A stretch of DNA of 64,000 nucleotides from an uncultured Gemmatimonadaceae bacterium (GCA_964557115.1 CAZKYO010000004.1:53892-117891), one strand, 5' to 3'; shown: positions 1-17,100, counted from the stretch's first letter. The notes: a model not told the origin generated them from the letters alone. Numbers and translations: made by a program.

Positions 1-51
1 GCAGCAGCGCGGCGCACGCCAGCCAGCCGAGGCCCCCGCGTCGCACGGGGG

Positions 52-357
52 CTATGCCCTGCCCCGCATCTTCGCGAGCCACCAGCGCAGCCCGACGAAC
101 AGGAAGCGCCAGTCCTGGAAGAACTCCGGCGGCTTCCCCTCGACGGCGTGGCCGACGAACTGGAAGATCCATCCCACCACGAACATCGCCAGCGCGATGG
201 GCCAGAGGCCGGCGACGAAGATCGCCACCAGCCCGAGCGGAATCGACAGCGCGATCAGCGGGATGCCGAGGGTGTGGCAGAACCGGTTGACCGGGTGCTG
301 GTGACTCGTCGCGTACTGCCGGATCCATTCGTCCCACGAGCGACCGGCGAGCATCAT
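52..357 (-). CDS. DUF962/Mpo1-like small membrane protein
   Basis: 101-aa ORF with N-terminal HQHPVNRFCH motif and two long hydrophobic helices (IPLIALSIPLGLVAIFVAGLWPIALAMFVVGWIF). Family call from motif memory. Confidence 0.65.
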   Translation of the reverse strand: MMLAGRSWDEWIRQYATSHQHPVNRFCHTLGIPLIALSIPLGLVAIFVAGLWPIALAMFVVGWIFQFVGHAVEGKPPEFFQDWRFLFVGLRWWLAKMRGRA

Positions 358-382
358 CCACTCCGCGGGTGGCGGGTTCGTG

Positions 383-1294
383 TCACGGCCGGATCTTGGT
401 GCAATTCGGAGGCGGGTTCGGCCCGGCGCCGCCGTCGGAGTATCCCTGGTTGCCGCAATCGTAGTACTCGAACACCGCCGTCGCCATCGGCGGCGGGGCG
501 GTCCCGACGACCTGGGTGCAGCTCGGCTGGACCCCGCCGCCGGTGGTGCAGACGCCGTCCCACTGGATGAAGAGCGACAGGCCGCCGCTGGTGTGCTGTC
601 GGGTGGCGGTCACGGTGCTGCCGGTCGGCAGGTAGGCATAGACCAGCGGCGCGGCGGGAATCGCGACGCCGCCACCACCGGCGCAGCAGGGCGGGTTGGT
701 GTTGGTGTAGGGCCGGTTGGGAAACGCGAGCCGGTCGCGGGCCACCCAGCTGTAGTTGAGGGCGCCAGCTCCCTCGAGCCCGAAGATCACCGACCGCATC
801 TGGGCGAAGTCGGCGCGCACGTTGTACTGCTTGTCGGCAGTGACGTGCAGGACGCAGTCGCCCAGGCTCACGTTGTTGGTGCAGTCGCCCACGTAGCTGA
901 CGAACTCGTGGCGGCGCGGATCGGGCGGCGGGACCGGCCGCCCGTTGCCGGCATCGGCCGCGACGTAGCCCTCGCCCTCGATCGCGAAGAAGGTGATCGT
1001 CTTTCCGACCGGCACGTCGATCGGGCAGGTCGGATTCACGTCGAAGAAGCAACCGAACGGCGTCGGCAGCATCGCAGCGGCCGCGGCCCGCGTGGTCGGG
1101 CCGTCGGCGATGACGTAGCGGACCGTCATGTCGACCTCGGTGCCGGACTGGCCGTGGATCGTCAGCACCACCCGGGCGGTGCCGTCACCATTGCCGTTGC
1201 CGTTGCCGCCCGAGTCGACGGGACTGCTGCCGCCGCACGCGGAGCAGAGGACGAGCGATGCGATCGCGGAGAGCCGGACGCGGGGCATGACCAC
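383..1294 (-). CDS. hypothetical Cys-rich lipoprotein
   Basis: 303-aa ORF with lipoprotein-type signal (LSAIASLVLCSACGG), a GNGNGNG linker and many Cys. No family recognised. Confidence 0.55.
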   Translation of the reverse strand: MVMPRVRLSAIASLVLCSACGGSSPVDSGGNGNGNGDGTARVVLTIHGQSGTEVDMTVRYVIADGPTTRAAAAAMLPTPFGCFFDVNPTCPIDVPVGKTITFFAIEGEGYVAADAGNGRPVPPPDPRRHEFVSYVGDCTNNVSLGDCVLHVTADKQYNVRADFAQMRSVIFGLEGAGALNYSWVARDRLAFPNRPYTNTNPPCCAGGGGVAIPAAPLVYAYLPTGSTVTATRQHTSGGLSLFIQWDGVCTTGGGVQPSCTQVVGTAPPPMATAVFEYYDCGNQGYSDGGAGPNPPPNCTKIRP

Positions 1295-1374
1295 CTCGGG
1301 GCGTCGAGGGACGTCGGTAGTCTGCGGTCCGGGCCCCGGGGGCGCAATGCCGCCCGCATCCCTGCCCTACGAGC

Positions 1375-2565
1375 TCAGCGACCGGCCGGCGTCACCCGCA
1401 CCATCACCGCGCCGTGCGACGGCACCATCGCCTCGTACCGGCCGCGGAACGTCCCCTTGTCCTCGTGGGCCCAGAGGTCGCGCACGCTGGCCGAATCGGT
1501 CCGCAGCCCGAGCCGTCCCCAGTTGACGCGCATCGTGGTCGGGACCGAGGCGCGGTTGAGCATCACGACGGCGCGCGAGCCGTCCTTGAGCGGCTTGGAC
1601 CACACCTGCAGCTCGCCGGGCCAGTTCTGCACCAGCATCCCCTGGGCGCCGAGCGAGTCCTGATCCACCGCGATCACCTCGCGGTTGGTGAGGATGTCCC
1701 GGATCGCCTTTGCCCGACGGGAGTCGCCGACCAACTCGCGGATGTCGTTGCCCGCCATCAGCGGCGCCGCCATCATCGCCCAGAGCGAGAAGTGCGCGCG
1801 GTACTCGGTGTCGCTCATCCCCCCGTTGCCGACCTCCAGCATGTCGGGGTCGTTCCAGTGGCCGGGACCCGCCGCCGACCAGTACTGCGAGGAGAGGTCG
1901 AGGATCGCCATCACGCTGGTCCAGCTGTCCTCGATGTCGCCGGTGGTGCGCCAGAGGTTGCCGACGCCGCCGGCCCATGCCCACGGCTGGTTGCTGCCCC
2001 ACTCGCAGATGCTGAACACGATCGGTCGCCCCGAGTGCGCGAGCGCATCGCGCATCACGGCATACCGTTCCGGGGCGTCGAGCCCCTCGGCGTAGCACCA
2101 GTCGACCTTGGTGTAGTCGACGCCCCACTCGGCGTAGGTCCTCGCGTCGATCGCCTCGAAGCCGTAGCTGCCGGGCCGCCCCTGGCACGTCTTGCGGCCG
2201 GCGTCGGTGTAGAGGCCGAACAGCAGCCCCTTGCCGTGGACGTAGTCGGCCAGCGCCTTCATCCCCTCCGGGAAGCGCTGCGAGTCGGCGACGATCCGGC
2301 CGTTCGCGTCCCGGCCGACCTGCCAGCAGTCGTCGATCACCACGTAGCGATAGCCGGCGTCGCGCATCCCGCTGGCCACCATCGCGTCGGCGGTCTCGCG
2401 GACCAGCCTGCTGCTCACGTCACAGGCGAAGTGGTTCCAGCTGTTCCACCCCATCGGCGGGGTGAGGGCGAGGCCGTTCGGCACCGTCGCGGGCACGGGG
2501 CGGGAGTGGGCGGCGGCCGCGGCCAGCGAGACGGCGAGCACGACGAGGGCGGCGAGGCGCTTCAT
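1375..2565 (-). CDS. alpha-galactosidase, glycoside hydrolase family 27
   Basis: 396-aa ORF with signal peptide and GH27 hallmarks PPMGWNSWNHF, YVVIDDCW, YTKVDWCY. Confidence 0.9.
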   Translation of the reverse strand: MKRLAALVVLAVSLAAAAAHSRPVPATVPNGLALTPPMGWNSWNHFACDVSSRLVRETADAMVASGMRDAGYRYVVIDDCWQVGRDANGRIVADSQRFPEGMKALADYVHGKGLLFGLYTDAGRKTCQGRPGSYGFEAIDARTYAEWGVDYTKVDWCYAEGLDAPERYAVMRDALAHSGRPIVFSICEWGSNQPWAWAGGVGNLWRTTGDIEDSWTSVMAILDLSSQYWSAAGPGHWNDPDMLEVGNGGMSDTEYRAHFSLWAMMAAPLMAGNDIRELVGDSRRAKAIRDILTNREVIAVDQDSLGAQGMLVQNWPGELQVWSKPLKDGSRAVVMLNRASVPTTMRVNWGRLGLRTDSASVRDLWAHEDKGTFRGRYEAMVPSHGAVMVRVTPAGR

Positions 2566-2640
2566 GGCGGGACTCCGGCACGGGAATGGTGCTACAGCTA
2601 CCGATCGGCGACGGGAAGTGCAAGGGCCGACTCCGCCTCG

Positions 2641-3144
2641 CTACCCCGCGTCGCCGGCGATCGCGACGTACTGGCGGTACATCCCCACCCGCCAGCGCAC
2701 GATCATCCCGAACGCCAGGAGGTAGAACACCGCGGCGGTCTGGAGCGGCGAGATCAGGTGGCCGATGTAGTCGTGCAGCAGCAGGCGGATCGCCAGCAGG
2801 CCGACGAGGATGCCGAGGAACCAGCGGGACCGCTGCATGTACACGACGCCGTCGCGCACCTCGAGCCGCGACGAGTGCACCAGCGGCAGCGAGAGGACGA
2901 AGGCGCCGAGCGCCAGCGCGATGAGCGCCCAGCTCCAGGGCACCCGCATCGCCGGCGAGAGGAACATCCCGAAACCGGTGCTCATCGCCAGCGGCGGGAT
3001 CACGATGGCGCGACGGGTGAGCGGCACCCGGGTCTCGCGGACCCGCCAGAAGAGGATCGCGACGCCGCCGAAGGCGGGCGCCACCCGCAGCAGCGGTCGC
3101 AGGATCGCCTGATGGCGCTGGTAGAGTTCCTGGAGGTTCAGCAT
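2641..3144 (-). CDS. ccdC: CcdC-like (DUF1453) membrane protein
   Basis: Start moved to MLNLQELY (3144). Four TM segments. IPPLAMSTGFGMF, YMQRSRWFLGILVGLLAIR and YLLAFGMIVRWR resemble Bacillus CcdC as I recall it. Confidence 0.7.
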   Translation of the reverse strand: MLNLQELYQRHQAILRPLLRVAPAFGGVAILFWRVRETRVPLTRRAIVIPPLAMSTGFGMFLSPAMRVPWSWALIALALGAFVLSLPLVHSSRLEVRDGVVYMQRSRWFLGILVGLLAIRLLLHDYIGHLISPLQTAAVFYLLAFGMIVRWRVGMYRQYVAIAGDAG

Positions 3145-3224
3145 CGCCGTCCAATCATACCACCCGGTTGCCGCCGGGGCGATTATGATTGCTGCCGTCC
3201 CAATCAACCCTTCCGGAGAAGGCC

Positions 3225-3623
3225 ATGTCCGACCTCAACGCCACCGCCCTCGGCTGTTCCCTCACCTGCAAGGACGTCGAGGCCTCGATCGCCTGGTATC
3301 GCGATGTCCTCGGCTTTTCGGTCGGGATGACGTTCGAACGCGACGGCAAGGTCGCCGGCGCGACGATCGACGCCGGCAGCATCCACATCGTCCTCAACCA
3401 GGACGACGGCAAGCTCGGCTGGGACCGGATCAAGGGCCAGGGCTGCTACTTCCAGATCAACGTCGCGACGCTCGCCGACGTCGATGCCGCCGCCGCGCGG
3501 ATCGCGGCGGCGGGCGGGACGCTCGTGACCGAGCCGGCCGACCGGCCGTGGGGCGCCCGGATGTTCATCTTCCGCGACCTGGATGGCTTCAAGTTCGGGG
3601 TGTCGACGCCGCTGCAGGGCTAG
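3225..3623 (+). CDS. VOC/glyoxalase-bleomycin resistance family protein
   Basis: Start at MSDLNA (3225). Pattern KDVEASIAWYRDVLGF ... PWGARMFIFRDLDGFKF is typical of the glyoxalase/VOC fold. Confidence 0.8.
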   Translation: MSDLNATALGCSLTCKDVEASIAWYRDVLGFSVGMTFERDGKVAGATIDAGSIHIVLNQDDGKLGWDRIKGQGCYFQINVATLADVDAAAARIAAAGGTLVTEPADRPWGARMFIFRDLDGFKFGVSTPLQG

Positions 3624-3792
3624 GTCGGGCTCCGGCCCGGCGCGTGGCGCGACGGCAGGGAACGCCGACCGCGCCGATCGACATTGCACGGCCGGGTCGC
3701 CGATCCCTTTCACGCGCCGCTCCGCGATGGTATCTCTCGTCAGCTCCGCCGTCACGACGCGGAGCGCGATGGACCAGCGATCAGGAGCGGCA

Positions 3793-5877
3793 ATGCGTCC
3801 ACGATTCCTCACCGCCTGCACGGCCATGGCCGTGCTCCTTGTCGTGCCCGTCACCGCCGGCGCACAGGCCGCACGGGCCTATCCGGAGCGCGCGATCCGG
3901 CACGACATCCCGATGACCGACATGATCCGGCGCGCCATGGCGGCCGGCACCCGCGACAGCGGCGGGCGCCCGGGCGCCAACTACTGGCAGCTCTGGAACG
4001 ACTACACCATCACGGCCCGGTTCGACCCCGCCACCGGCGTGCTGGAGGGGCGCGAGCACGTCGTGGTGCACAACAACAGCCCCGGCGAGATGCGGGAGAT
4101 CGTGCTGCGGCTCGACCAGAACCTCTTCGCGCCCAACGTGCCCCGGGCCGAGACGGTGACCGACATCACCGACGGGATGCAGGTCACCGCGCTCAGCGTC
4201 AACGGGAAGCCGGCGACGCTCAACGCGGGCGCGGCGGCGCGCGGACGCGGCCGGGGCGACAACGCGGCGCCGGTGGAGCTCGCCGCCTCCAACCTGTCGC
4301 AGACGGTGGCGACGATCCGCCTCGCCGAGCCGGTGCCGGCGCACGGCACCGTCGCGGTCGACGCCGAGTGGCACTTCACGGTGCCGAAGGTCGTGGCGCC
4401 CGAGCGCGGCATCCGGATGGGCGCCTGGGGCGACTCGCTCTACCAGGTCGGCCAGTGGTATCCGCGCATCGCGATGTTCGACGACCTGCGCCAGGGCGGC
4501 TGGGACACCGATCCGTACCTCGGTCCCTCCGAGTTCTACAACAACTTCGGCCGGTTCGACGTGACGCTCGACCTGCCGGCCGGCTGGCTGGTGGGCGCCT
4601 CCGGCATCCTGCAGAACCCCGAGGAGGTCCTCACGGCCGCCGAACGCGACGGCCTGCGACGCGCCCTCGCGGCCGACTCGACCGTGCGCATCCTCGGCCC
4701 CGAGGACTTCGGGCCCGGCAAGGCGACCGCCGGCGCGGCCGGCGACCGGCTGACGTGGCACTTCGTGGCCGACACCGCCGGTGACGTCGCCTGGGCCACC
4801 TCCAACCAGTTCATCTGGGACGGCTACCACGCGGCCATTCCCGGCACGGGCAAGAACGTGCCGATCAACGTCATGTACCTCCCGGGCCACGAGCGGCAGT
4901 ATGCCGGCGCCGGCCCGACCGTGAGGCACGCGCTGCAGTTCTACTCCGGCCTGTGGATCCCGTACGCGTTCCCGACGATGACGATGGTGGACGGCCCGGA
5001 GCTCGGGATGGAGTACCCGATGTTCATCATGTCGAGCACCGGCGCGGCCGACCACGAGACCGGGCACGAATGGTGGCCGATGACGCTCGGCACCAACGAG
5101 ACGTGGTACGGCTTCATGGACGAGGGATTCAACCAGTACATGAACATCCTGTCGCGCCAGGACCGGCAGGGACAGCCGGCCAACCTCGACGGCCAGGGCC
5201 AGCGCTACGGCCAGACGAGCGGTGACGAGCGCGAGGCGCCGCTGATGTGGGACGCCAACTACGGCGGCCCGATGTACTCCTTCCAGGCGTACAGCAAGGC
5301 GCCGATGATGCTCTCGATGCTCGGTGGCGTGGTCGGCGACACGGCGGTGTGGCGCGCGATGCGCGCGTACGCCGAGGCCTGGCGCTTCAAGCACCCGTCA
5401 CCGTGGGACTACGCGTTCTTCATGGACAACGCGCTCAAGCGCGACCTGGGATGGTTCTGGTACTCCTGGCTCTTCACCACCGACGCGGTGGATGGCTCGA
5501 TCCAGGGCGTGAGCGCGATGCGCGGCCCCACCACCGTCACGGTGCACCAGGCCGGCCAGATGCCCTCGCCGGTGGTGCTCAACGTCCACTTCGCGCCCGG
5601 TGGCCCGGCGCTGCGCCGGGTGCCCAACGCGGTGATCGTCGACGATTCCACCGCGACGGTCAGCTACCCGGCCGACGTCTGGTTCAACGGCAGCCGGACG
5701 TTCAAGGCGACGTTCGACTTCGGGCCGCGCACGATCGAGCGCGTGGTGCTCGATCCCCGCTGCCGCTTCCCGGACAACGACGTCGCCGACAACACGTGGC
5801 CGCGCCAGCCCCCGCCGGCCGCGCCGACGGGGCCCGCGGGCGGCGGGCGGTTCGGCGGACCCGCCTGCCAGGGCTGA
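3793..5877 (+). CDS. secreted M1-family (gluzincin) metallopeptidase
   Basis: Start at MRPRFLTACTAMAVLLVVPVTAGAQA (signal peptide). Zinc site HETGH followed 18 residues later by E (HETGHEWWPMTLGTNETWYGFMDEG) fits HEXXH-X18-E. Confidence 0.85.
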   Translation: MRPRFLTACTAMAVLLVVPVTAGAQAARAYPERAIRHDIPMTDMIRRAMAAGTRDSGGRPGANYWQLWNDYTITARFDPATGVLEGREHVVVHNNSPGEMREIVLRLDQNLFAPNVPRAETVTDITDGMQVTALSVNGKPATLNAGAAARGRGRGDNAAPVELAASNLSQTVATIRLAEPVPAHGTVAVDAEWHFTVPKVVAPERGIRMGAWGDSLYQVGQWYPRIAMFDDLRQGGWDTDPYLGPSEFYNNFGRFDVTLDLPAGWLVGASGILQNPEEVLTAAERDGLRRALAADSTVRILGPEDFGPGKATAGAAGDRLTWHFVADTAGDVAWATSNQFIWDGYHAAIPGTGKNVPINVMYLPGHERQYAGAGPTVRHALQFYSGLWIPYAFPTMTMVDGPELGMEYPMFIMSSTGAADHETGHEWWPMTLGTNETWYGFMDEGFNQYMNILSRQDRQGQPANLDGQGQRYGQTSGDEREAPLMWDANYGGPMYSFQAYSKAPMMLSMLGGVVGDTAVWRAMRAYAEAWRFKHPSPWDYAFFMDNALKRDLGWFWYSWLFTTDAVDGSIQGVSAMRGPTTVTVHQAGQMPSPVVLNVHFAPGGPALRRVPNAVIVDDSTATVSYPADVWFNGSRTFKATFDFGPRTIERVVLDPRCRFPDNDVADNTWPRQPPPAAPTGPAGGGRFGGPACQG

Positions 5878-5959
5878 GCACATTGATCCGACGCATGAAG
5901 CGGGCGGCGACTCTCCTCGAGTCGCCGCCCGCTTCACGCGTGGCCTGAGCGTCGCGGCC

Positions 5960-6691
5960 CTACGGCGCCCCGGGCTTCCACCCCGTCTCCACCACCGTCC
6001 GCCCTGCCGCCCGCGCCCCGGCCACCCGGGCGGCGATCATCCGCGCCGGGTCGCCGCGGCCGCCGTCGCTGCAGTACACCGGGTTGATCCGCCCCACCGT
6101 CGCGGGGTCGCCGGTGTAGCCGTGCTTCGCGGTCAGGTACTTCATCCACGCCATCTGGGTGGTCGCCAGGTTGGCCGGCTGCGGGAGGTCGAACACCGCG
6201 CTCACGTACAGCGGCCGGGTGAACGGCTCGGTCATGCAGTAACCCTGCGTCTCGTGCCCCATCGAGAAGCTCGGCTCGCCGAAATCCGGTCGCGGCACCG
6301 TGTCGGCGAACGCCACCTCCATGGCGGAGGGCTGGTACTGCCAATCCACCGGCACCACCCGCAGCCGCGCCTGCGCCAGCCGGTCGAGGAGCGCCGCCCG
6401 CACGCCCTCCGCCTGGTCGGCGGTGTAGTACGAGTTGCACGTGGCGCTCGCCGGGTCGCTGTGCCGATGGTCGAAGCGTCCCTTGATGTACTGGGCGAAC
6501 TCCTGCCCCATCATCCGGGATCGGTAGGGACCCGCCTTGAGTCGGGCGTCGAAGACCGGAGTGACGTAGATCACCGAGTCGCCCTCGGTCGTCGAGCACA
6601 CGGCGCGCGCCGTGCCGCCCTGCGCCGCCAGGGGCATCGCGGCACACGCGACGAGGACGGGAAACGCCAACCAACCGCCGCCGATCTTCAT
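5960..6691 (-). CDS. hypothetical secreted protein
   Basis: Start at MKIGGGWLAFPVLVACAAMPLAAQ (6691), signal peptide, coding-like composition. The upstream part of the track ORF looks non-coding. Confidence 0.55.
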   Translation of the reverse strand: MKIGGGWLAFPVLVACAAMPLAAQGGTARAVCSTTEGDSVIYVTPVFDARLKAGPYRSRMMGQEFAQYIKGRFDHRHSDPASATCNSYYTADQAEGVRAALLDRLAQARLRVVPVDWQYQPSAMEVAFADTVPRPDFGEPSFSMGHETQGYCMTEPFTRPLYVSAVFDLPQPANLATTQMAWMKYLTAKHGYTGDPATVGRINPVYCSDGGRGDPARMIAARVAGARAAGRTVVETGWKPGAP

Positions 6692-7141
6692 GCCGCCTCC
6701 GTTGCCACCCGGGGCGTGAGGTGCCCGGGTCGGGACATCGACGATACGGCCGATCCGCCGATCGGGAAGGGGCCCGACACTGCCCGCACTCCGGGTACCC
6801 ATCCAGTCGTCGATCCCCGGTGGCGGACCGCGGCACGGCGGGCTGGCATCCCGCCCAGGAGCAACTCCCGCAATGCGCAATGCGCACTGCCCTCGCCTGC
6901 TCGCCCTCGCCGCATCCCCTGCCGGGGCGCTGGAGAAGACTTGGCCTGCCGATCAACACCTTTGCCGATGAGTTCTACTGGAGCCTGCGGCGACCGCGAC
7001 CCCCGCCGAGGAGACGGCGTGCCGAGGACTCATCGGAACATCGAGCCAGGGAGACCGGGTCGTGCACAGGTTTGGATGGCCGCGGCCCCGTCGCTCCCGA
7101 CGACGGGGTGGACGACGGGGGAGCGCTCGCGCCCGGGTCGC

Positions 7142-8434
7142 CTACCCCGGCACCGTGTAGCGCCAGATCATCGCCGGCCCCTGAAATCCGCCGAAGAGGA
7201 GCACCCGGTCGCCGTGGAACCCGATCACCCCGCGGCACGCCGCCGAACAGGTCGGCGCGCCGGAGAGCGGCTCGAGGGTCGCCACCGGGGCGAGGCTCAG
7301 CGGATCGCGGACCTCGAGGGTGACCGGCGCGTCCCCCGGCTCCAGGGACCGGGTCGCGAGGAAGAGCCACCTCGCTGCGGGATCAATGCCGATCGCAACG
7401 ACCGACGCGTCGATCGAGTCGGTCGCGAGAACGGCACCGTCGGTGGCGCGGTACCGGCGGAGCCGGGCATAGGTGCCCGCCTGATCGTCGGTGCGCTCCC
7501 TGGAGACCATCAGCAGGTCGGCTCCATCCGACGAGAAGGTGGCGACGTGGCTCCGCCGCGCCTGGAACGCCACGCCCCGCCCGACCGGGTCGAGGACCGG
7601 CGCCTCCCCCGGCGGGGCCTCGGAGAGGAGGGCGATCCGGTCCCCGCGGGGAGAGAGGAGCAGCGCGTGGGGGCCCGGCAGGAAGACGTGGTCGGTGACG
7701 GTTTCGTACGGCGAGGCCGGGGTCGGCCGGTAGGTCCAGTAGAGTTCGTTCGACTTGGCGTAGCGCACCCAGAGGTCGGGGGATGGCCGAGCGACGACGT
7801 CGGTGAACTGCGCCTCGATCTCCGGCTGCGACTCCCCCACCGTCCCGAGCGGCAGGTCCACGAGCCGAACCGCTCCGGCGGCCGGGTCGACGATCCAGGT
7901 CGCCGGATCCGAGGTCGGCCCGGGGCCATACGGCAGCCGCAAGTCGTGCAGGCTCGCGTGGCGAGTGGTGGCGCCGGTTGCGAGGTTGACGACCACCAGG
8001 TCACGCCCGGTGAAGCCGATCACGTGGGGCTGCCAGTTGAGCACTGCCAGCTGCGCCTCGCCGAACCACGAACTCGCGTCGGGCACCGCTTCGGCGTCCA
8101 CGAACCCCGCCACCGCGATCGACGCCACCGGGAAGCCGTAGCCGTCGAACCGGACGACCGGCTCGAGGACGGCCGCCGGCATCGGGGGGAGGGTCGCGGC
8201 GAGGGTCGTCTCGTCGAGCCGCTCCATCGCCACCGACGCCGTGCCGAAATCGAGCGTCGCCCCGTCCCCGAAGGTGCGGAAGTCCTCGGAGCGCAACCGG
8301 ACGACGCCCCCCGACCAAACCGAGCGATCGAGGACGGCGATCTCGCCACGGGGCATCGGCGCGGCGGTGGGACTCGAGCACGCTCCGATGAGCAGGGCGA
8401 GGGAGAACTGGAGGCCGGCTGGCTTGAACGGCAT
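7142..8434 (-). CDS. hypothetical lipoprotein, beta-propeller-like
   Basis: Start at MPFKPAGLQFSLALLIGACSSP (lipobox). Repeated beta-strand-rich segments. No family recognised. Confidence 0.55.
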   Translation of the reverse strand: MPFKPAGLQFSLALLIGACSSPTAAPMPRGEIAVLDRSVWSGGVVRLRSEDFRTFGDGATLDFGTASVAMERLDETTLAATLPPMPAAVLEPVVRFDGYGFPVASIAVAGFVDAEAVPDASSWFGEAQLAVLNWQPHVIGFTGRDLVVVNLATGATTRHASLHDLRLPYGPGPTSDPATWIVDPAAGAVRLVDLPLGTVGESQPEIEAQFTDVVARPSPDLWVRYAKSNELYWTYRPTPASPYETVTDHVFLPGPHALLLSPRGDRIALLSEAPPGEAPVLDPVGRGVAFQARRSHVATFSSDGADLLMVSRERTDDQAGTYARLRRYRATDGAVLATDSIDASVVAIGIDPAARWLFLATRSLEPGDAPVTLEVRDPLSLAPVATLEPLSGAPTCSAACRGVIGFHGDRVLLFGGFQGPAMIWRYTVPG

Positions 8435-8662
8435 CAAACGCCTCCAGGTCGCGAGGTTCGGCAGGGCAAGGAACCCTTGATGAGACCCGGCCCGGGCGCA
8501 GCCCGTCACCCCGATTGCATGACCACCTGAGACTTGGGTGATACGGTCACGACCGACATCGCAACCGCATCGACAGGCGCACTGTACAACGACATTCTAT
8601 CGATAGGATCTCGCGAGTCCGCCTCCGGAACCGCGCGGAAACCCCATGGCTTTGCCGATGCT

Positions 8663-9130
8663 TCAACCTGGGTCGCAGTCGACGAAGTGAACGTCGGCGG
8701 GGCCCGAGCGACGAACCAGGATCACCAATGGCGGGCCGCCGGCGGGTACGTGCCACGAATGGTGGATCCGCCCTGGAACCACGACATAGCTTCCTGGCGA
8801 CAGGGCGTGGCGCTCGCCGTCCAGTACGATCGCCCCGTCGCCGCTGACCACCACGACGTACTCGTCATGCGTGTGCCAATGGAGCGCGAACTGCGAGCCC
8901 GCCGGGAATCTCGCGAAGTATGTGGGTCCCCCGTTTGCTGCGTCGGTGCCCAGCCGGGCGGTCTGGACCCCCCGGGGGTAGCAGGGCCTCTCGCTCGGAG
9001 CAGTCCACTGGACGTCGGCGACATTGATGACGCGCGATTCCAACCCTGCCTGGGCAGAGCCATCTGCTGGGGATACAGCGATCGCGACGATCGGCAGAAG
9101 GTACCCCAGCAGCTTGCCGTGCTTCTTCAT
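8663..9130 (-). CDS. secreted cupin-domain protein
   Basis: 155-aa ORF with signal peptide and cupin metal motif region FALHWHTHDEYVVVVSGDG ... PGRIHHSWH. Confidence 0.8.
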   Translation of the reverse strand: MKKHGKLLGYLLPIVAIAVSPADGSAQAGLESRVINVADVQWTAPSERPCYPRGVQTARLGTDAANGGPTYFARFPAGSQFALHWHTHDEYVVVVSGDGAIVLDGERHALSPGSYVVVPGRIHHSWHVPAGGPPLVILVRRSGPADVHFVDCDPG

Positions 9131-9291
9131 GCTGTACCTCGCGCGATAGTGGAGCGCTCAAACGTCGTGCGTTTCTGCGGCGGGGGCGCCGCCGCACCGT
9201 TTCCTCGATGCTACACCAATGCCCCTGCGGTGTCCCCGTCCGCTGCAACGGCTTGTTGGGCTGCCTTTCACCTTTCTCCCGCTCCCTTGTC

Positions 9292-9933
9292 CTATCTGGA
9301 GTCTTGTTTGAACATGTTGTGAGCTTCCTCCCTGGTGATCGTTGAATACTCCGGGTGCCCCTTGGGTCGATAGACTTGGATTGTCACCCCGTGCGGCTTA
9401 GCGCTTGATTCGACAAGCTGGAGCGCAACATCACTGCCGACATCAGGGAACAATCGGATTCCTTGACCCACAATTACGGGGAAGATGATCAGGTTCATCT
9501 CATCGATCAGACGGTTCTGGAGCAACCAACGGATGAGTTGACCACTGCCATGAACTTGGAGTTCGCCTCCCGCCTGTGCTCGCAGATTGGCAATTGCAAC
9601 TGCGAAATCTTGCGACAAGACTCTTGTGTTGTCCCATTCTGGATCGCGCAAAGTGCTCGACACCACGTATTTCGGCTTTGTGTGCAGTGCTGCGGCAATC
9701 GGCCTTTTGCTTGTCTTGGGCGCCACTCCCCACGTATAGGCAAAGATGTCGTAGGTCTTGCGTCCGAACAGGAAAGCATCCGCGCGTTGAAAGACTTGGT
9801 TGACAAACTCCCCTGATTCGCTGTCAAAGTGAGCCCACCCTCCACGGTTGAAGCCTCTGTCGTCCTCGTCCGGACCTCCGGGACTCTGCATGACACCATC
9901 AAGCGAAAGTTGAGTGGTCGTGGTCAGTTTCAT
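9292..9933 (-). CDS. RibD C-terminal domain / dihydrofolate reductase-like family protein
   Basis: 213-aa ORF. MKLTTTTQLSLDGVMQSPGGPDED ... FLFGRKTYDIF ... ELQVHGSGQLIRWLLQNRLIDEMNLIIFPVIVGQG is the typical RibD_C layout. About 50% GC against about 70-80% in the flanks (hand counts of sample stretches). Confidence 0.85.
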   Translation of the reverse strand: MKLTTTTQLSLDGVMQSPGGPDEDDRGFNRGGWAHFDSESGEFVNQVFQRADAFLFGRKTYDIFAYTWGVAPKTSKRPIAAALHTKPKYVVSSTLRDPEWDNTRVLSQDFAVAIANLRAQAGGELQVHGSGQLIRWLLQNRLIDEMNLIIFPVIVGQGIRLFPDVGSDVALQLVESSAKPHGVTIQVYRPKGHPEYSTITREEAHNMFKQDSR

Positions 9934-10112
9934 GTATGGAGTCTCTTCTCAAATCATGGCACTTGGACAACCGCCAGAGAATTGAACCGACCGCAATGCA
10001 TCGCTTCCCGTGTCTGCACAACAAGTATTGGACCCGCTCCCGTACCTCGCGAATCCTGCACTACGGTACCGCCCGCCACCTGATCCGGAAACCCTGTGAG
10101 TCCGCCCAGCTC

Positions 10113-10534
10113 CAGCCCATCCGCCGGACTCCGCACTCCCAGCCCACCCCGATTGAGCACGTGGGTGTAGATCATCGTCGTCGTCACATCCCGATGCCCC
10201 AACAGCTCCTGCATGGTGCGAATGTCCCCTCGTCCGCGCTTCGCGCGAACTCGGGGCAGGCTTCTCCCGATTCCAGCAGGTGCGTCGCGAACGAATGCCT
10301 CAGGGTGTGACAGCTCGCCCGCTTGCCAATCCCGCTCTCCCGCACCGCCGCCGTCATCGTCCGCTGCATCGCGCTCTCGTGCAGGTGATGCCGGCGCACC
10401 TCGCCGCTCATGCCGTCGCGATACCGCCGCGTTGCCGGGAACACCCACTGCCAGGGCCAGCTCCGCGCTGCGTTCGGAAACTTCCGGTCCAGCGCCCCCG
10501 GCAACGCCACCCACCCCGCCCCGTCGGCCAGGTC
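10113..10534 (-). pseudogene. intI: integron integrase (IntI) remnant, N-terminally truncated and frameshifted
   Basis: Two frames (track ORFs 10184..10606 and 9954..10514) together read [24 protein letters not shown]...[12 protein letters not shown]...[18 protein letters not shown] // [38 protein letters not shown]. This includes the IntI-specific ALERKYP...W.WVFP patch plus the box II Tyr. About 150 N-terminal residues are missing, and a 38-nt block interrupts the frame. Confidence 0.8.
10227..10264. repeat. 38-nt block interrupting the intI remnant, with a perfect 10-bp palindrome TTCGCGCGAA (10240-10249)
   Basis: On the coding strand GAAGCCTGCCCCGAGTTCGCGCGAAGCGCGGACGAGGG lies between HLLESG and DIRT, where IntI proteins have a single Tyr codon. 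The net +35 nt shifts the frame. Confidence 0.6.
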
Positions 10535-10545
10535 GCGCGAGCGCC

Positions 10546-10761
10546 CTACGCCGTCCCCGACGACCCCTTCCGCGTCGACCACCCGAACAGCGAGTAGCCG
10601 GGGCACCGCGCGGCCAGGGAGGAGAGCAGGAACACCACCGCGATCACCCCCAGCACGATCGCCAGCGTGCCGCTGATCCGGCCGGTGAAGTAGAGCACCG
10701 CGATCGCGACCGCGATCAGGGTGCGGATGAGGCGATCCGCCGTGCTCATGTTGATCGGCAT
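10546..10761 (-). CDS. DUF2892 (YgaP-like) small membrane protein
   Basis: 71-aa [64 protein letters not shown]. Typical DUF2892 layout with C-terminal CP.Y motif. Confidence 0.7.
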
Positions 10762-10936
10762 GCGACGCTCCCGGCGAGGCGTGAGGGGGACGCCGTGGGC
10801 CGGGGCGGGCGCCCCGGCGCGTGGCGCACCCTGAAGGTGCCGCCCGAAACGAGGCCCGACAAGCGACCCCGCCCTGCCCCGACCACCCCCTATTGGACCA
10901 GTGATTTTCGGGTTATCTTCGGTTTCCTGCTGCCCC

Positions 10937-10976
10937 CTCGAATCGCGAGTCTCGAATCCCGGTTCTCGATGAAATC
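10937..10976. repeat. solo heptad/14-mer tract (CTCGAATCnCGnnT x3) overlapping the imuB start codon
   Basis: ctcgaatcgcgagt ctcgaatcccggtt ctcgatgaaatc read directly. ATTCGCG-type heptad family. No inverted partner within 170 nt upstream. Confidence 0.7.
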
Positions 10977-12450
10977 CGTCCTCTTCGTCGACCCCCCCGC
11001 CTTCTGCACCACCGTGGCCGCGATGGACGACCCGTCGCTGCGCCACCGGCCGGTCGCGATCGCCCCCCTGGGGGCCGACCGCGCGGTGCTGCTGGCGCTC
11101 TCGGCCGAGGCGCGGCGCGAGGGGCTCGCGCGGGGGACGCCGGTGGCGCTGGCGCGGCGGATCTGCCCCGACCTGATCGTGCGTCCCCCGGAGCCGCGGC
11201 GCTGGGCCCGCGCCCACCGGGCGCTGCACGAGATCCTGTCGCGGGTGGCGCCGGTGATCGAGCCGAAGACGTGGGGGCACTCCTACCTCGACATCACCGG
11301 CACCGAGCGCCTCTTCGGTTCACCCGTCGACGTCGCCCGCCGCCTCGAGCGCGAGGCGCGTGAACGCCTCGGGCTGCCGCTCGCGGTGGGGATCGCGATC
11401 AACAAGCTGGTGAGCGAGACGGCCGCGACGGTCGTCAAGCGCGAGACGGGCGCGCTGATCTGGCCGGTGGCGGCGGGACACGAGGCGGTGTTCCTGGCGC
11501 CCGAATCGGTGGCGCTCCTGCCCGACGTGTCCGACCCGATCCGCGAACGGCTCGACGACTACCACCTCGAGCGGATCGGCGAGGTCGCCGCGCTCGGCGA
11601 ACAGCCGCTCCGGATCGCGTTCGGACGCGCGGGCCGCACCCTGCACCAGCACGCGCACGGCATCGATCGCCGCCCGGTGCTGCCGCCGGCGGTCCGGGCC
11701 GAGTGCCGCGTCGCGCACGTGCTGGCGACCGACACCAACGACCGCGCCGTGCTGCAGCGGCTGCTCCGCGCCATGAGCGAGCGGATCGGCCGCCGGCTCC
11801 GCGAGCGCGGCTACGTGGCGGGACGCCTCCACCTCGCGGTGCGCCACGCCGACGACACGACCGCCGAGCGGCGGGTGCGGCTCGCCGCCTGCACCCTCGA
11901 CGTCGAGCTCTGGCGCGCCGCGTGCGCCGCGCTCGACCAGGCGCTGACGCGGCGCATCGCGGTGCGCAGCGTGACCCTCACCGCCCTGGAGCTCCACGAC
12001 GGCGACGGACAGTTCGAGTTGTGGGAGGACCCCGCGGCCCTCTCGGCGCCGGAGGCCACCGCGCTGCAGCGGGCGGTGGATGGGGTGCGGCGGGTGTTGG
12101 GAGAAAGGCAGGTCCCTCGACTCGCGCCTGCGGCGCTCGCTCGGGATGACAGTGGTGAGGAATCGCCCTTCGCCCCTCACCCTTCGCCGGTCGCCTACCA
12201 GTCCCACGCCTCCAGCCGCTCGGTGCCGTCGTCGTCGACCGACAGCGTCACCAGCAGGTCGCCGTCGAGCACGGCGCGTTCGCTGCGACGCGGCAGCCGC
12301 AGCGTCCGCACCCAGCGGCCGGCGGCGGCGAACAACCGCCAGTCACAGCCGGTGGCGCCGGCCCCGCAGTACCCCGCGACGGCGAGACGGCCGTCGCGCC
12401 CCACGGCCAGCGCGCCGACGAGCGGCACTGTCGCGGCGAACGTGGCATGA
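10969..12450 (+). CDS. imuB: ImuB-like catalytically inactive Y-family DNA polymerase
   Basis: Start at MKSVLFVDPPAFC. Y-family fold motifs are present, but the catalytic DxD is replaced (VDPPAF) and the SIDE Glu is absent (SYLDITG), as in ImuB. dnaE2 lies nearby. The 3' end is uncertain: no stop until 12450, and the last ~85 codons are antisense to the convergent gene. Confidence 0.75.
   Translation: MKSVLFVDPPAFCTTVAAMDDPSLRHRPVAIAPLGADRAVLLALSAEARREGLARGTPVALARRICPDLIVRPPEPRRWARAHRALHEILSRVAPVIEPKTWGHSYLDITGTERLFGSPVDVARRLEREARERLGLPLAVGIAINKLVSETAATVVKRETGALIWPVAAGHEAVFLAPESVALLPDVSDPIRERLDDYHLERIGEVAALGEQPLRIAFGRAGRTLHQHAHGIDRRPVLPPAVRAECRVAHVLATDTNDRAVLQRLLRAMSERIGRRLRERGYVAGRLHLAVRHADDTTAERRVRLAACTLDVELWRAACAALDQALTRRIAVRSVTLTALELHDGDGQFELWEDPAALSAPEATALQRAVDGVRRVLGERQVPRLAPAALARDDSGEESPFAPHPSPVAYQSHASSRSVPSSSTDSVTSRSPSSTARSLRRGSRSVRTQRPAAANNRQSQPVAPAPQYPATARRPSRPTASAPTSGTVAANVA
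12154..12190. repeat. small heptad palindromic element (CTTCGCC/CCTCACC type) in the imuB 3' region
   Basis: ggtgagg aatcg cccttcg cccctca cccttcg cc. Stem ggtgagg/cctcacc. Translated in the imuB frame as GEESPFAPHPSP. Confidence 0.55.
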
Positions 12451-13325
12451 TCGAGCCACTCCTCCACCATGCGGCGCTCCATCTCGGTGCCGGCCTCGCC
12501 GAGGCGCACCGCGCGGTAACGGGCGCGGGCGTCGTCGTCCACCGGCGCGCCCGACTCGTTCCATCGCACGATCCGGCGCACGGCACCGTTCGACCCGCCG
12601 AGACGCACCTCCGCCGCCAGGCCGGTGGCGCGTGCCAGCCAGGGGCCGGCCGTGGCGACCGATGCGACCGCGCCGAAGGCCTGGTCGTGGAGGTTGGGAC
12701 CCAGGTCGGCCAGCACGAAGTCGACCATGCTCGAGTGCATCCAGCCGCTGCTGCCGAGCGGCAGGCCGGTGGCCGAGACGCGGGAGAGCACCAGCGAGTC
12801 GCGATTGAGGCCGGGCTGCATCTGCTTGAAGAAGCGCGCCGCCAGGAGCAGCGACCCGTCGTCGAAGGCGCCGCGCAGTTCCGTGTTGGGCCCGTCGAGG
12901 TCGAGCTGCAGGGTGCGCAGCAGCGCCCCGTCGGGACCGATCACCGTGAGCCGACCGATCCCGAACTCGTAGGCGAAGGCGGTGTCGCCGATCGCCGCGA
13001 CCGAGAGGGCCCGCTGGAACTCGCCCGGGCCGGCGCCCTTCCGCCCGAAGCGCCAGCGCAGCGTCCCGTCGGCCCCGAACGCCAGCACCTCGGCGCTGCC
13101 GCTGTTCGCCACCAGCAGCGTGCCGTCGTCGCGCACCGCAAGGTCGGTCACGTCGAGCAGCGGCGAGCCCTCGCCACCGACGGTCCATCGCGGCGCGGGC
13201 GTGATCACGCTGTCCGGGGCGGCGCTCGTGACGATCGCGATCCCGGCGCTGTCGGTCGCCGCCCCGGGAGGGGGCGCGCCGCGCCCGCCGCAGGCCGCGA
13301 GGAGGAGCGCCAGCGCGAACGCCAT
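12195..13325 (-). CDS. lipoprotein with NHL/6-bladed beta-propeller-like repeats
   Basis: Start chosen at MAFALALLLAACGG (lipobox, 13325). Repeats such as VRDDGTLLVANSGSAEVLAFGADGTLRWRFGRKGAGPGEF. The upstream track extension only translates the palindromic element at 13419-13480. Confidence 0.7.
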   Translation of the reverse strand: MAFALALLLAACGGRGAPPPGAATDSAGIAIVTSAAPDSVITPAPRWTVGGEGSPLLDVTDLAVRDDGTLLVANSGSAEVLAFGADGTLRWRFGRKGAGPGEFQRALSVAAIGDTAFAYEFGIGRLTVIGPDGALLRTLQLDLDGPNTELRGAFDDGSLLLAARFFKQMQPGLNRDSLVLSRVSATGLPLGSSGWMHSSMVDFVLADLGPNLHDQAFGAVASVATAGPWLARATGLAAEVRLGGSNGAVRRIVRWNESGAPVDDDARARYRAVRLGEAGTEMERRMVEEWLDHATFAATVPLVGALAVGRDGRLAVAGYCGAGATGCDWRLFAAAGRWVRTLRLPRRSERAVLDGDLLVTLSVDDDGTERLEAWDW

Positions 13326-13418
13326 CCCCGCCTCGCCGCGACCGGGGACCGGATCGGGGCGCTCCTGGATCTCGAGGGACGGCAGGATCACGGCTCGCAT
13401 GCCGAGAACTATATCCGC

Positions 13419-13480
13419 GAGATTCGCGATTGGAGACTCGAGATCCGGAAAGGCCCCTCGAATCTCCGATCGCGAATCAC
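13419..13480. repeat. heptad-arm palindromic element, ATTCGCG family
   Basis: Left gagattcgcgattggagactcgag vs reverse complement of right gtgattcgcgatcggagattcgag (21/24 match), 14-nt spacer. Lies in the divergent spacer between the propeller lipoprotein gene and tag. Confidence 0.8.
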
Positions 13481-13501
13481 GATCCTCCGCCTGAGGCACC
13501 C

Positions 13502-14029
13502 ATGAGCTCCTACTGTGACATCGCCCCGGGCCATCCGGTCCACGGGCCGTACCACGACACCGAGTACGGCTTCCCGCTCCGCGACGACGCGGGGCTGTTC
13601 GAGCGGCTGGTGCTCGAGATCAACCAGGCCGGCCTGTCGTGGCTGACGATCCTGAAGAAGCGCGAGGCGTTCCGCGCGGCCTACCGCGGCTTCGATCCGC
13701 ACGTGGTGGCGCGCTTCGGCGCGCGCGACCGCGCCCGGCTGCTGGCCGACGCCGGGATCATCCGCAACCGCCTCAAGGTCGACGCGGCGATCCACAACGC
13801 GAGGCGGCTCGTGGTGCTGATCGACGAGCACGGTTCGTTCGCCGACTGGCTCGACCGGCAGGGCACGCTGTCGAAGGCCGAATGGGTGAAGGCGATGAAG
13901 CGCGAGTTCCGCTTCATGGGCGGCGAGATCGTCGGCGAGTTCCTGATGAGCATCGGCCGGCTGCCGGGGGCGCACGCACCAGGGTGTCCGGTCGCGAAGC
14001 AGCTGGCGCGCCGCGCGCGGCGCGCCTGA
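13502..14029 (+). CDS. tag: DNA-3-methyladenine glycosylase I
   Basis: Start at MSSYCDIAPG. YHDTEYGFP, LEINQAGLSWLTILKKREAFR and FMGGEIVGEFLMSIG are Tag hallmarks. Confidence 0.9.
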   Translation: MSSYCDIAPGHPVHGPYHDTEYGFPLRDDAGLFERLVLEINQAGLSWLTILKKREAFRAAYRGFDPHVVARFGARDRARLLADAGIIRNRLKVDAAIHNARRLVVLIDEHGSFADWLDRQGTLSKAEWVKAMKREFRFMGGEIVGEFLMSIGRLPGAHAPGCPVAKQLARRARRA

Positions 14030-14101
14030 TCCGGCCGTGCGCAGGACGACGATCGGCGGCGCCGCAAGCGACGCCGCAGCGACGCGGGTCCGTCCGCTCC
14101 G

Positions 14102-17100
14102 ATGAGCTTCACTCACCTCCACGTCGCCTCCTGGTTCTCCTTCGGCCGCGGCGCCTCGTCCCCCGAGGCGCTGGTGCAGGCCGCGGCGCGGCGCGGCTTC
14201 CGCGTGCTGGCGCTCACCGACACCAACGGCGCGTACGGCGCGGTCGAGTTCCAGAAGGCCTGCGACGCCGCGGGGATCCGCCCGATCCTCGGCGCGCGGC
14301 TGGTGACCCGCGCCCATCGCGCGGTGGTGCTCGCCGAGGACGCCCGGGGATGGGCCGCGCTCTGCCGCGCCGTCACCGCGATCCACTGGGACGCCGACCT
14401 CGCCCTCTCGGCGCAGCTGGCGGTCGATCGCCAGGGGCTGACGGTGCTCTCCGACGACGCCGACCTGCTCGAGCGCCTGGTGAAGCTCTCCGGCCCCGCC
14501 GGGATCTGCGCCGAGCTGATCCCCGGCCCCGATCGCCACCGGGTGCTCGCCGCGGCGCGGCGCCTGGGCCTCCCCGCGGTCGTCACCGGCGGCGTGGTGA
14601 TGGCCAACGCCGAGGACTGGCCGAGGCAGCGGATGATCGAGGCCATACATCGGAATGGCGTGCTGGACGAGGGCGGCGAGGGGCGACAGGCGACGGGCGA
14701 CGGGCGCACCGACGCTCCTGTCGCCTGTCGCGTGTCGCCTGTCGCGCCCCGCGACGCGTGGCTGCGCCCGGCACCGGAGCTCGAGCGGCATTTCCCCGAC
14801 GTCCCCGACGCCTTCGCCGCCGCCGGCGTGATCGCCGAGCGATGCCAGTTCCGGCTGCCGCTGGGCCAGACGATCGCGCCGCGGGTGGCCGACGCCGGCC
14901 ACGCGCTCGAGCGGTTGCGCACCCTCGCCTACGCCGGCGCGATGCGGCGCTACGGCACCATCGCGCCGGTGACCCGCGACCGGCTCGAGCACGAGCTCGC
15001 GATCATCGGGATGAAGGGGTTCGCCGACTACTTCCTGATCGTGCGCGACATCGTCGACCACGGCCCCACCCACTGCGGCCGCGGTTCGGTCGCGAACTCG
15101 ATCGTCTCCTACTGCCTGGGCATCACCCACGTCGAGCCGCTCGGCGCGGGGCTGCTGTTCGAGCGCTTCCTCAACCCCGCGCGCCGGGATCCGCCCGACA
15201 TCGACCTCGACTTCCCGTGGGACGAGCGCGACCGGATCCTGGCGTGGGTCTTCCGCCAGTGGCCCAGGCCGCGGGCGGCGATGGTGAGCAACCACAACTG
15301 CCTGCGGCTCGCCGGGGCGCTGCGCGAGGTGGCCAAGGTGCACGGCCGGCCCGCGAACGAGATCCGCGAGGTGACGCGCCGGGTGCCCCACTACGACCCC
15401 GGCGACGACCCGCGGGCGCTGTTCCGCGACCACCCCAACTTCCGCGACCTCCGGCTGCCGCGCGCCTGGCAGGACTACGCGGTGCAGGCGGCCGCGCTGG
15501 TCGGCACGCCGCGCCACCTCTCGCTGCACCCCGGCGGCGTGGTGATCGTCCCCGGCGCGCTCACCGACACGGTGCCGATCGAGCCGGCCGCCAAGCGACT
15601 CGACGGCGCCCCCGACCTCACCGTGCCGGTGATCCAGTTCGAGAAGGACGGCGCCGAGGACGCCGGCCTGGTCAAGATCGACCTGCTCGGCAACCGCTCC
15701 CTGGCGGTGATCCGCGACGCGATCGCGATGGTGCGGACCGGCACCGGCGTGCAGCTCGACTACACCTCGCACGCGGCGGGCGACGACCCCGCCACCCGGG
15801 CGCTCTTCCGCACCGGCGACACGCTGGGCGTCTTCTACACCGAGTCGCCGGCGTCGAGGATCCTCAACCTCAAGTCGCGGGCCGAGAGCTATGACCTGCT
15901 GGTGCTCAACACGTCGATCATCCGGCCGGCCAGCAACAAGTGGATCACCATCTACCTCGAACGGCTGCACGGCACGCCGTACGAACCGCTCGATCCGTCG
16001 CTGCGCGACGTGCTGGCCGAGACGTTCGGGGTGATGGTCTACCAGGAGGACGTCGTCAACGTCGCCCACGTCTTCGCCGGCCTCGACTGGGCCTCCGCCG
16101 ACGGGCTCCGCAAGGCGCTCTCCAAGAAGCGCCCCGAGAAGCACCTCGCGGCGTACGCCGACGAGTTCGTCCGCGGCGCCGCGGCGCTCGGCCGCGACCC
16201 CGCCACGACCGGGAAGGTGTGGGAGAACATCCTCGCCTTCGCCGGCTACTCGTTCTGCAAGGGGCACTCGTGCTCCTACATCCAGGTCGCGCAGCAGAGC
16301 TGCTACCTGCGCGCCAACCACCCGGCCGAGTTCATCGCCGCGGTGCTCGCCAACGGCGGCGGCTTCTACCGACCGTTCGCCTACGTGGCCGAGGCGATGC
16401 GGATGGGCGTGACCGTGCTGCCGCCCGACGTGAACGCGAGCGCGTGGCGGTGCACCGGGCGGGACCGCGAGCTGCGGGTCGGCCTCCAGTTCATCAAGGG
16501 ACTCTCCACCGCCGGCGCCGACGCCCTCGTGGCGGCCCGCGAGGCGGACGGGCCGTTCGCGTCGCTCGACGACCTGCGCCGCCGCACCGCGCTGTCGCGC
16601 GACGACCTGCGATTGCTCGTCAAGGTCGGCGCCTGCGACGCGATCGCCGCCGGACGGCACCGGCCGGAGCTGCTGTGGGCGGTGGATGTCATCCCGCCCT
16701 CGCTCGCCACCCGAGCGAGCGGCGGGATCTCCGAGGTCGCCACGCCCCGACCCGCTGCGTCACGGGTCGGAGCGTTCACGGCCTCGGAGGCCCCGCCGCT
16801 CGGGCTGAAGCCCGAGGGCGGGGCGATCCCCCGCCTCCGCGACTACCCGCCCGAGCGCAAGCGCCAGGACGCGTGGGCGCTGCTCGGCTTCTGCACCGAC
16901 GCCCATCCGATGACGCTGCACGCGGCCTCGCTCCGCCGCTTCCGCCTGGCGCGCAGCACCGAGCTGCACCGCCACGTCGGCAAGCGGGTGCTGATGGCGG
17001 GGATGTACACCACCGGCAAGCCGGTCCACACCGCGAAGCACGAGCCGATGCAGTTCGCCACTTTCGACGACGGGCACGGCCTGGTCGAGTGCGTCCTCTT

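Follow-up and report, generated by a model that had tools for sequence, protein, structure and literature searches.

A degenerate integron of inverted layout, with an inactivated integrase gene and a probable attI core and two cassettes, in an uncultured Gemmatimonadaceae bacterium

The stretch of 64,000 nucleotides from an uncultured Gemmatimonadaceae bacterium that was analysed here (the window) very probably (roughly 85%) carries a small chromosomal integron of inverted layout within a high-GC genome, probably of Gemmatimonadota type judging by GC content and by the nearest intI and attC relatives, in which the integrase gene is inactivated and the attI core and two cassettes are kept. Read along the minus strand, the locus would consist of a YgaP-like gene, an intI gene lacking ~200 N-terminal codons, a 38-nt hairpin, the rest of intI with a mutated stop codon, the attI core, cassette 1, cassette 2 and a host lipoprotein gene. 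The first-pass annotation had described this region as the relic of a chromosomal integron. The dead integrase agrees with that description, but the relic is not bare; it is rather an integron that has lost its integrase and whose cargo is now fixed at the locus.

The C-terminal ~38% of an integron integrase can be read across two frames on the minus strand of the window at 10053-10540. The joined two-frame conceptual translation scores 191.5 bits against the NCBIfam model TIGR02249 (profile positions 192-315 of 315) and 148 bits against PRK15417, vs 76 bits against XerD and 72 bits against XerC. The Xer models match the translation solely from query residue 42 on, and the first ~41 residues are matched by IntI models alone. 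IntI proteins carry an additional segment between patches II and III that is missing from XerC/D, and this segment (ALER/KYP...WxWxWVFP) is present here as ALDRKFP...WPWQWVFPA. Because the IntI-specific patch aligns to IntI models alone, the fragment can be set apart from Xer recombinases, and the profile search that had been proposed for distinguishing the two families upholds the original assignment to a decayed integron integrase rather than to generic XerC/D. The TIGR02249 score lies below the curated cut-off of 265 bits, which refers to the whole protein, and a full-length intact frame of ~320 aa is not present. Together with the partial profile match, the +35 nt frameshift and the lost stop codon, this marks intI as a pseudogene fragment and not as a member protein.

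Segment A of the pseudogene (10265-10540, minus strand) contains the IntI-specific patch and corresponds to residues ~203-293 of the intact 340-codon frame of L007, the closest named genome. Segment B (10053-10226, minus strand) is located in the other frame, contains the second His and the catalytic Tyr motif and ends with GGTVVQD. In tblastn searches with 11 related IntI proteins, segment A was aligned from 10534/10540 to 10265 at 67-71% identity and segment B from 10226 to 10101/10119 at 82-92% identity; the tail of segment B is homologous to P0001/P0003. The catalytic residues that can be read in the two frames are H and R (HTLRH), H (LLGH) and Y (IYTH), and comparison with full-length relatives would place the first catalytic Arg and the Lys in the deleted part. 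The closest public proteins are integron integrases from soil-type metagenomes (84-85% identical), and the closest genomes are Gemmatimonadales MAGs (74-79% identity). Top protein matches of only 130-240 aa were considered as a possible family of truncated IntI proteins; the idea was rejected, as most of them are cut by contig ends or split by frameshifts. The surviving intI codons show dN/dS values of 0.04-0.26 against relatives and still look as if they were under selection, which makes the inactivation of intI recent relative to the divergence from these relatives.

The lesions in intI were defined by DNA alignment with the two closest relatives, L005 and L006. Homology to intI begins at ~10540, at most 10 nt from the stop codon (10546-10548) of a YgaP-like/DUF2892 gene, and ~200 of roughly 320-340 codons are missing at the 5' end. 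No 5' or N-terminal remnant of intI was found elsewhere in the 64 kb by tblastn with the 11 related IntI proteins. The truncation described in the first-pass annotation is thus real, its size being ~200 residues rather than the ~150 given there. The flanking YgaP-like_TM (DUF2892) gene is complete (10546-10761, minus strand; PF11127, 62.8 bits, profile positions 1-64 of 66) and has a host-like GC3 of 0.99; its stop codon abuts the deletion breakpoint. Some tblastn alignments extended IntI homology into 10546-10627. This extension was discarded, as the DNA there codes for the complete YgaP-like domain in another frame and the similarity consists of low-complexity Arg/Ala/Val/Gly. Divergent from the YgaP-like gene and beside the integron remnant, the window also contains a gene for an ImuB-like Y-family DNA polymerase (10969-12450, plus strand; Pfam IMS and IMS_C), and this error-prone polymerase locus may continue downstream of the ImuB-like gene.

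The second lesion is the 38-nt hairpin block GAAGCCTGCCCCGAGTTCGCGCGAAGCGCGGACGAGGG (10227-10264, minus strand), which substitutes the TAT (Tyr) codon of ESG-Y-DIRT and faces a 35-column gap in both relatives. The relatives read GG(C/G) TAT GAC ATC at this position, vs GGA, the 38 nt and GAC ATT in the window, and the net effect is a frameshift of +35 nt; the break in the frame that had been reported at this palindromic block is real. The third lesion affects the former stop codon (10050-10052, minus strand), where the TAG of the relatives aligns with TCG in the window (alignment A1, columns ~565-572). Past this codon, the intI frame continues through non-homologous DNA to a TGA at 9954-9956 (ORF 9954-10514), and both the loss of the native stop and the run of the frame to 9954 had been recognised correctly at first pass. 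An 11-nt deletion relative to L005/L006 is located between the former stop and the attI core, just 5' of the core.

The 38-nt block contains the perfect palindrome TTCGCGCGAA and can form an 11-bp hairpin (-18.8 kcal/mol). It had been taken as a sign that small palindromic insertions act as gene-inactivating agents in this region. A clean hairpin, a perfect 10-nt palindrome and the flanks GGGA/GGGGA would indeed suit a small mobile element of palindromic structure (REP/MITE-like), present as a copy or as a footprint, that inactivates genes in this genome, and the block shares with REP/BIME and MITE-like repeats that it is a short GC-rich hairpin inserted in DNA. Unlike these repeats, it occurs just once and inside a coding region, and family members were not found: the 64-kb window contains no second copy with up to 3 mismatches, by the 21-nt core or by blastn-short, Smith-Waterman local alignment of the block against the window gave nothing above chance, and the 29-nt core has no exact copy among JGI metagenome contigs. 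The multiple related copies that characterise REP/MITE-like elements are therefore lacking in both the 64 kb and the JGI metagenome contigs. Moreover, 3 nt were replaced rather than a target cleanly duplicated, and the 3' half of the block weakly resembles 10357-10374, 110 nt upstream (16/18 identical; 5/500 shuffles reach this), a weak hint that locally templated filler DNA may have given rise to the block instead. A REP/MITE-like origin is accordingly improbable. The preferred reading is an isolated insertion or filler event that struck a gene when it had already become dispensable or costly, and the block gives no grounds for postulating a class of inactivating elements. An un-inserted allele, in which the block flanks are separated by 1-8 nt, was not found in the JGI metagenome contigs, and the source organism seems to be absent from this collection.

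A broader version of this idea carries a similarly small probability. The block would then be a lone copy, or the footprint, of a small insertion agent of undescribed type that forms hairpins, or the product of hairpin-templated repair, that hit intI, and in combination with the 5' deletion it would point to selection for silencing a costly integrase and for keeping two useful cassettes that are expressed by read-through from the YgaP-like gene. If true, one step by which cassettes become domesticated as ordinary genes of the chromosome would thereby be documented for Gemmatimonadota.

Integrons with an inverted integron-integrase layout have been described for Treponema and further lineages (PMC4889954; PMC3607928). 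Hairpins with AAC...GTT cores are concentrated 3' of intI across 80 related GTDB loci, and the intI remnant of L002, a locus of a Gemmatimonadales MAG, is followed by same-strand small genes that are separated by classical attC sites. Many of the related GTDB contigs stop just past the 3' end of intI, as expected if a repeat-rich array begins there. An alignment of 33 attCs from 13 related Gemmatimonadales-type loci, with the window left out, served to build the covariance model R1. Within the R and L stems, 17/28 pairs show changes on both sides, a covariation that 0/500 shuffles reach, and 87% of the cells of the alignment are paired, vs 27-43% for slid partners. Applied to 20 loci outside the training set, R1 detected 104 attCs with scores of 25-65 bits. 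Of the 16 held-out loci with arrays, 12 have the array 3' of intI on the same strand, and the remaining 4 (L023, L074, L077, L084) have the canonical divergent layout. Integron orientation thus appears to have switched within this IntI sequence neighbourhood, matching the reported paraphyly of the inverted group. The four loci of canonical layout belong to Polyangiaceae, Blastocatellia, a deltaproteobacterium and Denitratimonas, and their IntI proteins are 66-70% identical to the window fragment. The window itself has the inverted order, with intI, attI, cassette ORFs and attC all on the minus strand. A tblastn comparison with 86 related loci revealed no synteny for the YgaP-like, imuB, lipoprotein and cupin proteins, and no relative with an intact integron at this place.

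The attI side had been considered lost, because the canonical divergent layout was assumed and the deleted 5' side was searched. In L001, L003, L005, L006, L007, L025 and others, the clade motif GCAGGTCCAATAnnnGTTAGG is located 40-120 nt 3' of the intI stop. The part common to the relatives is (T)AGGCAGGTCCAATAnnnGTTAGG, and their sequences diverge immediately past GTT. In L007, the 13 nt from GTT, GTTAGGTGGCTGG, are the exact reverse complement of the first attC R'' end, CCAGCCACCTAAC, a pattern that marks the insertion of a circular cassette at G/TT. The window contains this attI core 3' of intI as GCGGGTCCAATACTTG/TTGTG (10017-10037, minus strand), with the predicted crossover at G10022/T10021, and the motif has this one match in 64 kb and 0/100 shuffles. 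The attI core has therefore been kept, as a predicted recombination site that is defined for this clade by sequence comparison.

Directly past attI, the GC content drops from ~72% to 54%. Cassette 1 (859 nt; 9163-10021, minus strand, T10021 to G9163) comprises a RibD_C/dihydrofolate-reductase-family ORF and an attC. The ORF is intact (213 aa; 9292-9933, minus strand; Pfam RibD_C, 86 bits; GC 0.54) and shows dN/dS values of 0.10-0.20. Its GC3 of 0.60, and that of 0.78 for the cupin gene in cassette 2, compare with 0.92-0.99 for host genes. RibD_C homologues with 80-92% identity over nearly all 213 aa are found on many short metagenome contigs; one 90% cluster has 621 members. L087 and L089 contain RibD_C homologues at 91% identity that are placed among attCs and have different neighbours; their homology to the window covers the ORF, ~45 nt of 5' UTR and the attC start, and ends there. 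In the light of these comparisons, the RibD_C gene with its attC is a mobile gene cassette.

The attC of cassette 1 (9154-9264, minus strand) extends from R'' GCAGCCCAAC to R' G/TTTGAGC and has its crossover at G9163/T9162, and its last 9 nt thus belong to the next cassette. It starts 28 nt past the RibD_C stop and is recognised by R1 over the full model length and on the minus strand alone, with 40.3 bits (E 2e-8; 5e-9 with filters off), a score within the held-out range of 25-65 bits. It is the sole R1 match with E<1 in 64 kb. The R' arm pairs poorly with R'', with 4 non-standard pairs. By the clade-specific covariance model R1, the window hence contains an intI together with at least one attC, which is the combination that defines an integron in the sense of IntegronFinder. 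With a strong attC and two cassette-type genes, the view that the locus has no cassette array had to be given up. No Rfam family was detected in the whole window at gathering thresholds. A second attC candidate at 533-636 (15.7 bits, filters off over 1-16000) was rejected, as it is without AAC/GTT cores. A GC-rich hairpin at 5878-5948, which scores ~11 bits by the attC model on both strands, is likewise without AAC/GTT cores and probably represents a terminator-like stem-loop.

The exact left boundary of cassette 1 is uncertain, since only 7/10 positions of its start, GTTGTGCAGA, agree with the complement of its R'' and 35 extra nt (9987-10021, minus strand) are located between the attI crossover (G10022/T10021) and the position of the L087/L089 boundary G/TTGGGC. 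These 35 nt could be a UTR indel or the remnant of an earlier cassette end. The attCs of the RibD_C/DHFR cassettes L087:439-1347 and L089:2138-2981 and of P0127 and its relatives have a GC content of 53-60%; the window attC has 68%, and its central part and 3' half differ from those of the other RibD_C cassettes. In L087, a truncated attC-like start is found ahead of the full attC.

Cassette 2 is represented by its 5' part (8663-9162, minus strand). It contains a cupin ORF of 155 aa (8663-9130, minus strand; Pfam Cupin_2/Cupin_7) with an apparent N-terminal signal sequence as judged by eye. The attC of cassette 1 ends at G9163/TTTGAGCGCTCC..., and the cupin ORF starts 24 nt past this attC. A cupin homologue in L103 (73% aa identity) has the 5' UTR in common with the window from exactly G/TT on (ACG/TTAGAGAGCTCCACC...). 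Upstream of G/TT, where another weak attC sits, L103 is unrelated to the window. In L100, a cupin homologue (76% identical) is located behind an array of five attCs. An attC 3' of the cupin gene could not be recognised in 8435-8662 by R1 with filters off. The cupin gene is best read as a second cassette, a putative assignment that is based on the comparison with L103 and L100 and on composition and not on an attC of its own; the attC of cassette 2 may have decayed, or the end of the array may have been deleted. The five-attC array of L100 (1059-5800) ends with an amidase gene and the cupin homologue, with no attC between or past them, and thereby mirrors the attC-less cupin gene at the end of the window's array. 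A sigma-70-like promoter that could serve as Pc was not detected in 8300-11000 by a crude scan, and the promoters of this phylum may differ. The promoter/terminator scan also found no terminator near the locus.

The two cassettes could also have entered at a secondary site, or they could be a CALIN fragment that was moved beside the intI remnant by rearrangement. Non-att cassette insertion and CALIN formation are documented (PMC4889954; bioRxiv 10.1101/2022.09.11.507474), and the unexplained 35 nt past the attI crossover and the poor R'/R'' pairing would be in line with such an origin. Against it, the cassette starts at the GTT of the conserved attI core, on the strand and at the distance from the intI 3' end that are seen in relatives, and a rearrangement scar or an IS was not seen, and this origin is thus very unlikely. 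Slightly less credence still can be given to the version of the first-pass annotation, a bare integrase relic that has lost attI and all cassettes and is followed by unrelated low-GC DNA. It could draw on the truncation of intI on the 5' side, where canonical integrons hold attI, and on the single attC in 64 kb, but it conflicts with the inverted layout of the clade, with the attI core, with a strong attC directly past the low-GC ORF, and with the cassette-borne occurrence of both downstream genes elsewhere.

The locus is covered by ten Logan contigs, which stem from different sequencing runs; nine are 100% identical to the window, L095 shows 8 mismatches in 3875 nt, and the block is carried exactly by 6/6 contigs that span its position. 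An explanation of the lesions as assembly errors fails on this identical sequence in at least nine independent assemblies, and a functional gene that is translated by recoding, with ribosomes hopping from GGA to GGG-GAC over the hairpin as in T4 gene 60, can be dismissed in spite of the Gly codon GGA before the block, the Gly codon GGG before GAC ATT and the hairpin in the gap, because the 5' truncation leaves ~200 N-terminal codons including those for the catalytic Arg and Lys absent regardless, and a stop codon is absent after the take-off codon. Among independent Logan contigs of this strain, ends recur at 10295, 10187, 9800, 9362, 6599, 6691 and 11946, and two contigs have their start at 10295, at a distance of exactly 31 nt (one k-mer) on the 5' side of the hairpin block. 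Such recurrent ends resemble branch points of a de Bruijn graph that arise when related sequences occur together, possibly including an allele without the block.

For the preferred reading, an inverted-layout integron with an inactivated integrase, a course of events can be drawn from established integron biology. An active IntI would earlier have inserted circular cassettes at the G/TT of attI. A later deletion would have taken the 5' two-thirds of intI, including its promoter, the DNA-binding domain at the N-terminus, the first catalytic Arg and the Lys. With a net gain of 35 nt, the HxxR motif would then have been separated from the His and Tyr motifs, and a mutation would have hit the stop codon. 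As no recombinase can be produced from this gene, excision or reshuffling of the cassettes in cis would have ceased, and they would behave as ordinary chromosomal genes. Another IntI could still mobilise both cassettes in trans, and their expression would need read-through or an unrecognised promoter.

The locus shares several features with the group of inverted integron integrases (Treponema denticola type; the group of Boucher 2007, discussed by Cury et al. 2016, PMC4889954, and Wu et al. 2013, PMC3607928): intI is transcribed towards attI and the array, the cassettes are located on the same strand 3' of intI, and the attCs have AAC...GTT cores and bulged bases. It differs from the Treponema denticola type in its host lineage, the nearest relatives being Gemmatimonadales MAGs, in its dead integrase, and in an array that consists of two genes and one recognisable attC. 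Integrons with an inactivated intI have been described before, e.g., many Xanthomonas integrons (PMC3108266; PMC8618304), and 43-46% of intI homologues were predicted to be inactive by Cambray et al. (PMC3108266). As in these integrons, frameshift, truncation and stop loss freeze the cassette content; unlike in them, three independent lesions are combined in the window, and the frameshift results from a 35-nt hairpin insertion and not from a 1-2 nt indel, an IS or a nonsense mutation. An interrupted intI frame is found in 13/78 related GTDB loci. In the Gemmatimonadales-type integrons L002:8001-8495, L003:2853-3802, L004:7567-8594, L027 and L083, intI is split into two ORFs or truncated, and long attC arrays are kept.

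Like a CALIN as defined by Cury et al. 2016, the window contains cassettes without a working integrase. In contrast to a CALIN, for which at least two attCs are required, one attC was found here, and the intI remnant and attI are still adjacent. The locus is therefore better called a degenerate complete integron than a CALIN. Cury et al. 2016 reported intI pseudogenes near 15/279 CALINs (PMC4889954).

Integrons were reported earlier in Gemmatimonadota (PMC8618304), and the locus provides one more example of how integrase decay freezes a small cassette array, a pervasive process that has been described before. It also places a low-GC RibD_C/DHFR-family cassette, which is abundant in metagenomes, as a resident in a genome with 71% GC. 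The finding opens no new question, and its main value is corrective and cautionary. Many soil phyla, among them Gemmatimonadota, Acidobacteriota and Planctomycetota, have attI and the cassettes downstream of intI, and a search that is restricted to the 5' side will therefore produce false "empty" integrons.
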